Positions 54,716-54,736 of a DNA stretch of 64,000 bases are shown in pieces. The notes below the pieces were generated by a model. That model was not told the DNA's origin. It made no database searches and was given only the letters and a program-made list of their open reading frames with translations. Origin of the DNA: Escherichia coli (lineage in GTDB: Bacteria; Pseudomonadota; Gammaproteobacteria; Enterobacterales; Enterobacteriaceae); assembly GCF_046105845.1 (NCBI RefSeq), contig NZ_CP151004.1. One strand, 5' to 3'. The first letter of the stretch is position 1. Each line of letters opens with the position of its first letter. Made by a program: the position numbers and the translations under genes.

Positions 54716-54736
54716 CAGACATGACATTCATGTCTG
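54716..54736. repeat. Perfect palindrome CAGACATGA-CAT-TCATGTCTG (9-bp stem, 3-nt loop) near the right edge of the AT-rich segment
   Basis: Read directly from sequence. Confidence 0.6.

Follow-up and report, generated by a model that had tools for sequence, protein, structure and literature searches.

In E. coli, Rho-independent termination relies on a stable stem-loop with a loop of 3-5 nt, followed on the transcribed strand by a U-rich tail, and such signals also occur as tandem pairs behind one gene. Hairpins beyond a stop codon may belong to other classes of element. REP sequences are GC-rich and present in hundreds of copies per genome, and CpxQ, SdhX and MicL are Hfq-binding small RNAs derived from 3'UTRs. 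Bidirectional terminators are reportedly found between convergent genes. In these elements an A-tract lies on one side of the hairpin and a U-tract on the other, and both strands read a hairpin followed by U (bioRxiv 10.1101/2022.10.23.513370). The palindrome described here lies behind rhlE in a 64,000-nt stretch of E. coli contig NZ_CP151004.1 (RefSeq assembly GCF_046105845.1), hereafter the window, and we consider it fairly probable that its stem-loop serves as a Rho-independent terminator for transcription in the rhlE direction (minus strand), the second of an island-borne tandem pair.

Direct reading of positions 54716-54736 gives CAGACATGA-CAT-TCATGTCTG, a perfect 9-bp stem with a 3-nt loop over 21 nt, as the initial annotation had it; T54715 and A54737 form a tenth pair, extending the stem to 10 bp (54715-54737). 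On the minus strand the RNA gains two G-U pairs at the base, which gives in the terminator scan a hairpin of 12 pairs at 54713-54739, GGUCAGACAUGA-AUG-UCAUGUCUGAUU, with a folding energy of about -15 kcal/mol. The spacing of 26 nt from the broken plus-strand frame also holds, the stop codon of that frame being at 54687-54689. RNA folding in both orientations yields a stable hairpin on either strand (-12.5 to -15 kcal/mol, z of about -3.4 to -4.3), and at most 1 of 200 shuffles is as stable. The stem has a G+C content of 39%, with G-C pairs at 4 of the 10 Watson-Crick positions, and passes the scan threshold of at least 3 G-C pairs. No further copy is found in the window with up to three mismatches.

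The two strands differ in what follows the hairpin. Directly 3' of it on the minus strand, at 54700-54714, lies a U-rich tail, UUUUAUUGUUUUUAA, which on the plus strand is an A-tract upstream of the hairpin. This minus-strand tail (TTTTATTGTTTTT) has a T-weighted score of 4.47, above those of all other hairpins among the 12 scored in the window, and falls within the top 0.05-0.06% of all 15-mers, whether those of the island or those of the window are taken. As UUUUAUUGUUUUU it holds 8 T within its first 10 nt and thus has the U-rich tract of a terminator, interrupted in the form UUUU-A-UU-G-UUUUU. On the plus strand AAAAACAATAAAAT precedes the hairpin and CCGTGTTACC follows it, and the scan makes no plus-strand call (tail CCGTGTTACCTGAAT, score 0.42); the palindrome is called on the minus strand only, with 12 pairs, 4 of them G-C, a 3-nt loop and the tail TTATTGTTTT. 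With 10 Watson-Crick and 2 G-U pairs and its 3-nt loop, the structure lies within the limits of a terminator stem-loop (5-14 bp stem, 3-8 nt loop), and a same-strand gene precedes it, the rhlE stop codon (54795-54797) being 57 nt away with another hairpin between. Because the T-tract is on the minus and not the plus strand, the palindrome would be a poor intrinsic terminator for a plus-strand gene. The earlier suggestion that it might end a small plus-strand gene therefore stands as to terminator anatomy and fails as to direction (plus tail 0.42, minus tail 4.47). A bidirectional terminator was considered and rejected, only one flank being A/T-rich.

The gene from which transcription would arrive is rhlE, encoding a DEAD-box RNA helicase, at 54795-56156 on the minus strand (from the list of open reading frames and the RefSeq annotation of homologous loci). 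Folding and allele alignment place the upstream hairpin of the pair, AAGGGCAAAAG, an 11-nt loop and CTTTTGCCCTT, at 54754-54786 on the same strand, with arms at 54754-54764 and 54776-54786, starting 8 nt past the rhlE stop codon. Its minus-strand tail, UUAUUCAGG, scores 2.59, as against 1.20 on the plus strand. In the rhlE direction the transcript would thus read stop codon, 8 nt, the first hairpin, UUUAUUCAGGUAACACGG, the palindrome as the second hairpin, and UUUUAUUGUUUUU; the two hairpins behind rhlE form a predicted tandem terminator arrangement, with the stronger U-tract in the palindrome. Strain VCSW7 carries two substitutions in the loop of the hairpin at 54754-54786, its stem being intact. 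The rhlE terminator hairpin that had been noted next to the palindrome is thus present; it is not native to rhlE, as it is island-borne and other alleles differ there.

The order of genes in this part of the window is dinG (minus strand, annotated start about 51891), a 670-aa gene (minus), a 607-nt spacer, rhlE (minus) and cecR (plus). The 670-aa gene, at 52175-54187, is espX2, a type III secretion effector with a SopA-like C-terminal domain (RefSeq annotation; Pfam and NCBIfam matches), known as Z1019/ECs0876 in O157:H7 (PMC2749873); it is the next same-strand gene downstream of the two hairpins, and in the window the palindrome lies between the co-directional rhlE and espX2. Sequence of the espX2 allele replaces ybiA between dinG and rhlE over 51987-54793, as delimited by allele alignment on the right, comparison of the left junction, and composition. 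By BLAST, 541 of 5,426 complete E. coli genomes have the espX2 allele at the dinG-rhlE locus; other genomes read carry ybiA (as the initial annotation supposed of K-12), a truncated ybiA or a RelE/ParE toxin pair, the toxin of this last allele being accompanied by a 146-aa hypothetical gene. With at least four alleles, all sharing a left boundary near 51986, the dinG-rhlE spacer is a hot spot of replacement.

On the rhlE side, homology among four allele types starts at ATTACTGCGCAG, the stop codon of rhlE together with one further base (window position 54794), which sets the right junction at 54793/54794; the left junction lies at about 51986/51987, in the dinG upstream region. Because homology stops one base past the rhlE stop codon, the palindrome is located some 57 nt inside the island and not at its junction. 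The ybiA and RelE alleles have another hairpin after rhlE, GCCGGGC-ATA-GCCCGGC, replaced in the espX2 allele alone; since island sequence takes the place of this GC-rich hairpin from 1 nt past the stop codon onward, rhlE would depend on island-borne signals. In the ybiA-type locus (L002:2091-2361) the GC-rich hairpin, ATGCCGGGC-ATA-GCCCGGCAT, is followed by a T-tract on neither strand, and for that reason it is no canonical intrinsic terminator in either direction. A REP-like sequence follows it; GCCGGATGCGGCG...CGCCTTATCCGGCCTAC in the ybiA allele is what we take to be this element.

The palindrome itself is, from these comparisons, island-borne. It occurs in exactly one place per genome in the 541 genomes and in none of the other complete E. 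coli genomes (BLAST, n=5,426), and it is absent from the ybiA, truncated-ybiA and RelE/ParE loci read; the insert-borne origin that had been suspected is borne out by this restriction to genomes with the espX2 allele. The search for additional copies, which had been proposed, thus returned a single one per genome. No match was found in phages, and the lone match in plasmids was a record of 4.9 Mb, evidently a chromosome. When CAGACATG-N5-CATGTCTGAC was sought in one representative genome per species, there were 0 matches in Enterobacteriaceae and 6 unrelated ones in non-enteric species, about 9 being expected by chance according to our own estimate. A repeated element of the REP/BIME kind was rejected on these counts, one copy per genome in the 541 and none elsewhere. 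An Rfam search over 54000-55000 with E values up to 10 returned chance-level matches only, the sequence records examined carry no annotation of the palindrome, and no mention of the element and no transcript data for its locus were found in the papers searched on espX2/rhlE, on ECs0876/Z1019, on Term-seq in Sakai or on an rhlE small RNA; the supplements of the Sakai small-gene paper hold no entry for the rhlE-espX2 locus. For O157:H7 Sakai there are public data sets, described in PMC7547250: Term-seq and dRNA-seq (GEO GSE143631 and a companion Term-seq series cited there), Hfq cross-linking (BioProject PRJNA197291) and RNase E cross-linking (PRJNA310426).

Other features of the island were noted in passing. 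Its left part, about 190 nt at 51988-52174, past the espX2 stop codon, is GC-rich (about 50-55%), unlike the rest. This part contains an imperfect inverted repeat, GGTATTGCCCGCCCTGGC / GCCAGGGCCATCAATGCC, forming a hairpin at 52117-52156 that may be a 3' structure of espX2; one RefSeq record has a 92-aa hypothetical protein annotated at the left end of the island (L005:1470-1748). The espX2 region of the window is 97.8% identical to its best match among the 5,426 complete genomes, and the 153 nt around the palindrome are 100% identical to strain N3. For the annotation of the locus, the island boundary at the rhlE stop codon, the island-borne nature of both hairpins and the recognition of the small open reading frame as a deletion remnant are practical corrections.

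This last point concerns the small broken gene of the initial annotation. The frame is indeed broken; it is not a small gene, being the 3' end of a deleted one. Comparison with full-length alleles identifies 54378-54689 on the plus strand as what is left, at the 3' end, of a 561-aa orphan gene, the remnant being interrupted by an in-frame stop: it comprises the last ~100 codons, about 75 of them past the in-frame stop. In N3 and others the full-length plus-strand gene, of 1,686 bp and annotated as "hypothetical protein", lies between espX2 and rhlE; an intact copy at L006:1865-3550 is AT-rich and divergent from espX2, and has the same stop codon as the window (54687-54689). Because the 561-aa gene ends there, the palindrome stands in a convergent 3'-to-3' spacer in full-length alleles. 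The window, O157:H7 and E7-1N7 have all lost the same 1,460 bp, the ends of the deletion meeting in a TTTGAYAGTT microhomology at 54378-54387. Among the 541 genomes, 157 retain the full-length spacer and 384 have a shorter one, in nearly all cases through this deletion, and the same junction is found on two palindrome haplotypes, the window type and the O157 type. The shared junction, together with identities of 97.8% as against 100%, suggests either that the island has recombined internally or that the deletion has arisen repeatedly at the microhomology.

The 561-aa protein matched no Pfam or NCBIfam family. It has no relatives outside E. coli and forms one cluster among 5.8 billion proteins, and a search of 1.84 billion representatives returned self-fragments only; no homologues in other contexts, with which the hairpin might have travelled along, were found. 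A single-sequence AlphaFold model is all-helical and of low confidence (pLDDT 61, pTM 0.41). As the neighbour of a type III effector, the protein could be a candidate effector or a partner protein.

Variation at the palindrome was followed in 9 complete genomes, 14 metagenome contigs and the window, and four main haplotypes plus one metagenome variant were distinguished. Their frequencies were taken from the identity bands of a 57-nt BLAST query, with few sequences read per band. The window type, with an A..T top pair, a 10-bp stem and a 3-nt loop, corresponds to exact 57-nt matches in 10 of the 541 genomes. Sequences with one base different account for 13, and the one that was read (L030) has A..G, a mismatch at the top pair. 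Those of lower identity number 518 (VCSW7 and 517 others); all that were read have T..G, which leaves a perfect stem of 8-9 bp with a 5-nt loop, or a U-G wobble in plus-strand RNA. Three of the T..G sequences read carry T54715A, by which the base pair is lost and the minus-strand U-run is lengthened. All forms fold, within -8.5 to -15 kcal/mol: the non-window haplotypes reach -10.6 to -13.9 kcal/mol, and the lowest stability (-8.5 kcal/mol) belongs to one low-coverage metagenome contig with a mismatch in the core stem. Of the 23 sequences read, 22 keep the 8-bp core, CAGACATG/CATGTCTG, unchanged, with variants at the top pair, in the A/T-tract or at the base pair. The sole paired change, T..G to A..G to A..T, is a single event with a mismatched intermediate. 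With divergence of no more than about 6%, the conservation of the stem carries no statistical weight; with about 9 variable sites in 105 nt, we estimate that it would be expected by chance with a probability of about 0.24.

Chance formation was assessed by comparison with shuffled sequence, counting perfect hairpins with stems of 9 bp or more and loops of 3-8 nt. The window contains 11 distinct ones, against about 1 in shuffles preserving local composition, an enrichment of about 10-fold. Such a hairpin arises somewhere in 10% of shuffles of the 2.8-kb island, and in 0.34% of shuffles of the 105-nt spacer that holds the palindrome. The combination of a hairpin, a strong T-tract at its foot and a spacer behind a gene of the same strand is hard to ascribe to chance.

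It may nevertheless be asked whether the palindrome has a current function at all. It might be fortuitous in AT-rich acquired DNA, or a terminator of the donor that receives no traffic here, and the frequency of comparable hairpins in shuffles of the whole island fits this, as do a top pair free to vary, the persistence of the mismatched A..G intermediate in 13 genomes, the core-stem mismatch in one metagenome contig and a conservation no higher than that of the flanking sequence; a T-tract in the top 0.06% placed exactly at the hairpin foot, in a spacer of 105 nt behind a same-strand gene, and the roughly 10-fold excess of perfect hairpins in the window make absence of function rather unlikely. 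Also unlikely, and slightly more so, is that the structure serves the plus-strand 561-aa gene, either ending its transcript or shielding its 3' end from exonucleases. The hairpin does lie 26 nt past the stop codon of that gene in the full-length alleles read, the full-length spacer being present in 157 of the 541 genomes; the plus-strand RNA folds just as well (about -13.5 kcal/mol), and the majority T..G haplotype has its U-G pair on plus-strand RNA only. However, the plus strand has no T-tract after the hairpin (tail CCGTGTTACCTGAAT, 0.42), so that canonical intrinsic termination is not expected for the 561-aa gene, and the flanking A-tract is on the wrong side for it. The palindrome is, moreover, equally kept in the 384 genomes in which this gene is deleted, which is weak evidence at such low divergence; since the gene is deleted in the window, the palindrome would there be a relic.

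The other two suggestions made for this element fare worse. Perfect dyad symmetry is what a protein-binding operator controlling espX2 or the 561-aa gene would show, and a palindrome of typical operator kind is found in the same window at 56349-56372, upstream of cecR. Yet the present palindrome lies between the 3' ends of two genes and not in a promoter, no sigma-70-like site overlapping it was found in a scan, and its distance from the espX2 start, 0.53 kb in the window, becomes about 2 kb in full-length alleles, a difference of 1.46 kb. Furthermore, no gene of the island is recognisable as a regulator, strains differ at the two centre-flanking positions and the site is single, with no second copy, all of which makes an operator very improbable. 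Nor is the palindrome known to match any E. coli operator consensus sequence convincingly. Equally hard to credit is a recombination site or junction scar, whether att-like, the end of a mobile element or a hairpin recognised by a transposase. The palindrome is near the right end of the AT-rich segment and the locus is a hot spot with at least four alleles, but the true right junction at 54793/54794 is 57 nt further right, beyond another island-specific hairpin, and a search for direct or inverted repeats shared with the left junction near 51987 returned only short AT-rich matches at chance level. Integrase and transposase genes are missing from the locus, save for secondary IS1 insertions in a few strains, and there is one copy per genome, with none in plasmids, phages or the representative genomes of other species.

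The palindrome at 56349-56372 merits separate mention. It is a perfect AT-rich palindrome of 24 nt, TCTTAATCAA-TCAT-TTGATTAAGA, which ends about 12 nt before the annotated start of cecR (ybiH); lying in the divergent cecR-rhlE spacer, it is a likely candidate for the operator of CecR, a TetR-family regulator. The CecR site has been placed in this same spacer (PMC12998191), the sequence of the site not being found in the text of that paper.

Returning to termination in the rhlE direction, we infer it, with its consequences, from the observed anatomy, strand asymmetry, island origin, single copy and position of the palindrome. RNA polymerase leaving rhlE would first meet the hairpin at 54754-54786, with its weak U-tail; some 15 nt further on, GGUCAGACAUGA-AUG-UCAUGUCUGAUU would be transcribed, followed by UUUUAUUGUUUUU. 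Formation of the hairpin over a weak rU-dA hybrid would then release the transcript about 7-9 nt past the stem, near 54705-54712. The island would in this way be protected from rhlE read-through, which in full-length alleles would run antisense to the convergent 561-aa gene and in deleted alleles, such as those of the window and O157:H7, would enter espX2 in the sense orientation about 0.5 kb downstream. The upstream hairpin may already stop most rhlE transcripts, and the palindrome could be a leftover from the donor context of the island. Should the proposal be correct, an acquired island would have swapped the downstream hairpin of a housekeeping gene for terminator signals of its own, and a constitutive helicase gene would be kept from driving a type III effector gene, or from producing antisense RNA into its neighbour. 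This would bear on the virulence-specific control of espX2 in O157:H7 and related strains; its importance would be modest.

A variant of this proposal, by analogy with known small RNAs, is that the last ~90 nt of the rhlE transcript might persist as a stable, island-created, 3'UTR-derived Hfq-binding small RNA in about 10% of E. coli, including O157:H7. We regard this as quite improbable. A scan found no promoter-like site inside the 3' end of rhlE.

Taken together, these observations allow the locus to be set against the systems described at the outset. The resemblance to 3'UTR-derived small RNAs is one of layout only: the end of the rhlE transcript would offer first a hairpin, then a single-stranded AU-rich stretch and last the U-tailed hairpin of a terminator, but unlike such RNAs it has neither an Rfam match nor an internal promoter-like site. 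Like REP/BIME elements, the palindrome is extragenic and downstream of rhlE, and the matching rhlE-ybiA spacer of ybiA strains does hold a REP-like sequence; unlike them, it has no sequence similarity to REP, is AT-rich and occurs once per genome. With bidirectional terminators it shares, in full-length alleles, a place in a short convergent spacer, between the 561-aa gene on the plus strand and rhlE on the minus strand; in contrast to those elements, a hairpin followed by U is read on the minus strand only. The palindrome departs from the usual E. coli terminators in having come with an acquired island and not having evolved with the gene that it would terminate, and from typical Rho-independent terminators in a weaker, AT-rich stem (4 G-C pairs in 10), G+C-poorer than is common in E. 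coli, and in an interrupted U-tract. It agrees with tandem Rho-independent terminators in standing less than 60 nt from a same-strand stop codon with a second hairpin just upstream, and with Rho-independent terminators of E. coli in general in its stable stem-loop, its short loop and the U-rich tail on the transcribed strand. By these features the palindrome hairpin is a new, ordinary and so far unannotated case of a predicted Rho-independent terminator.
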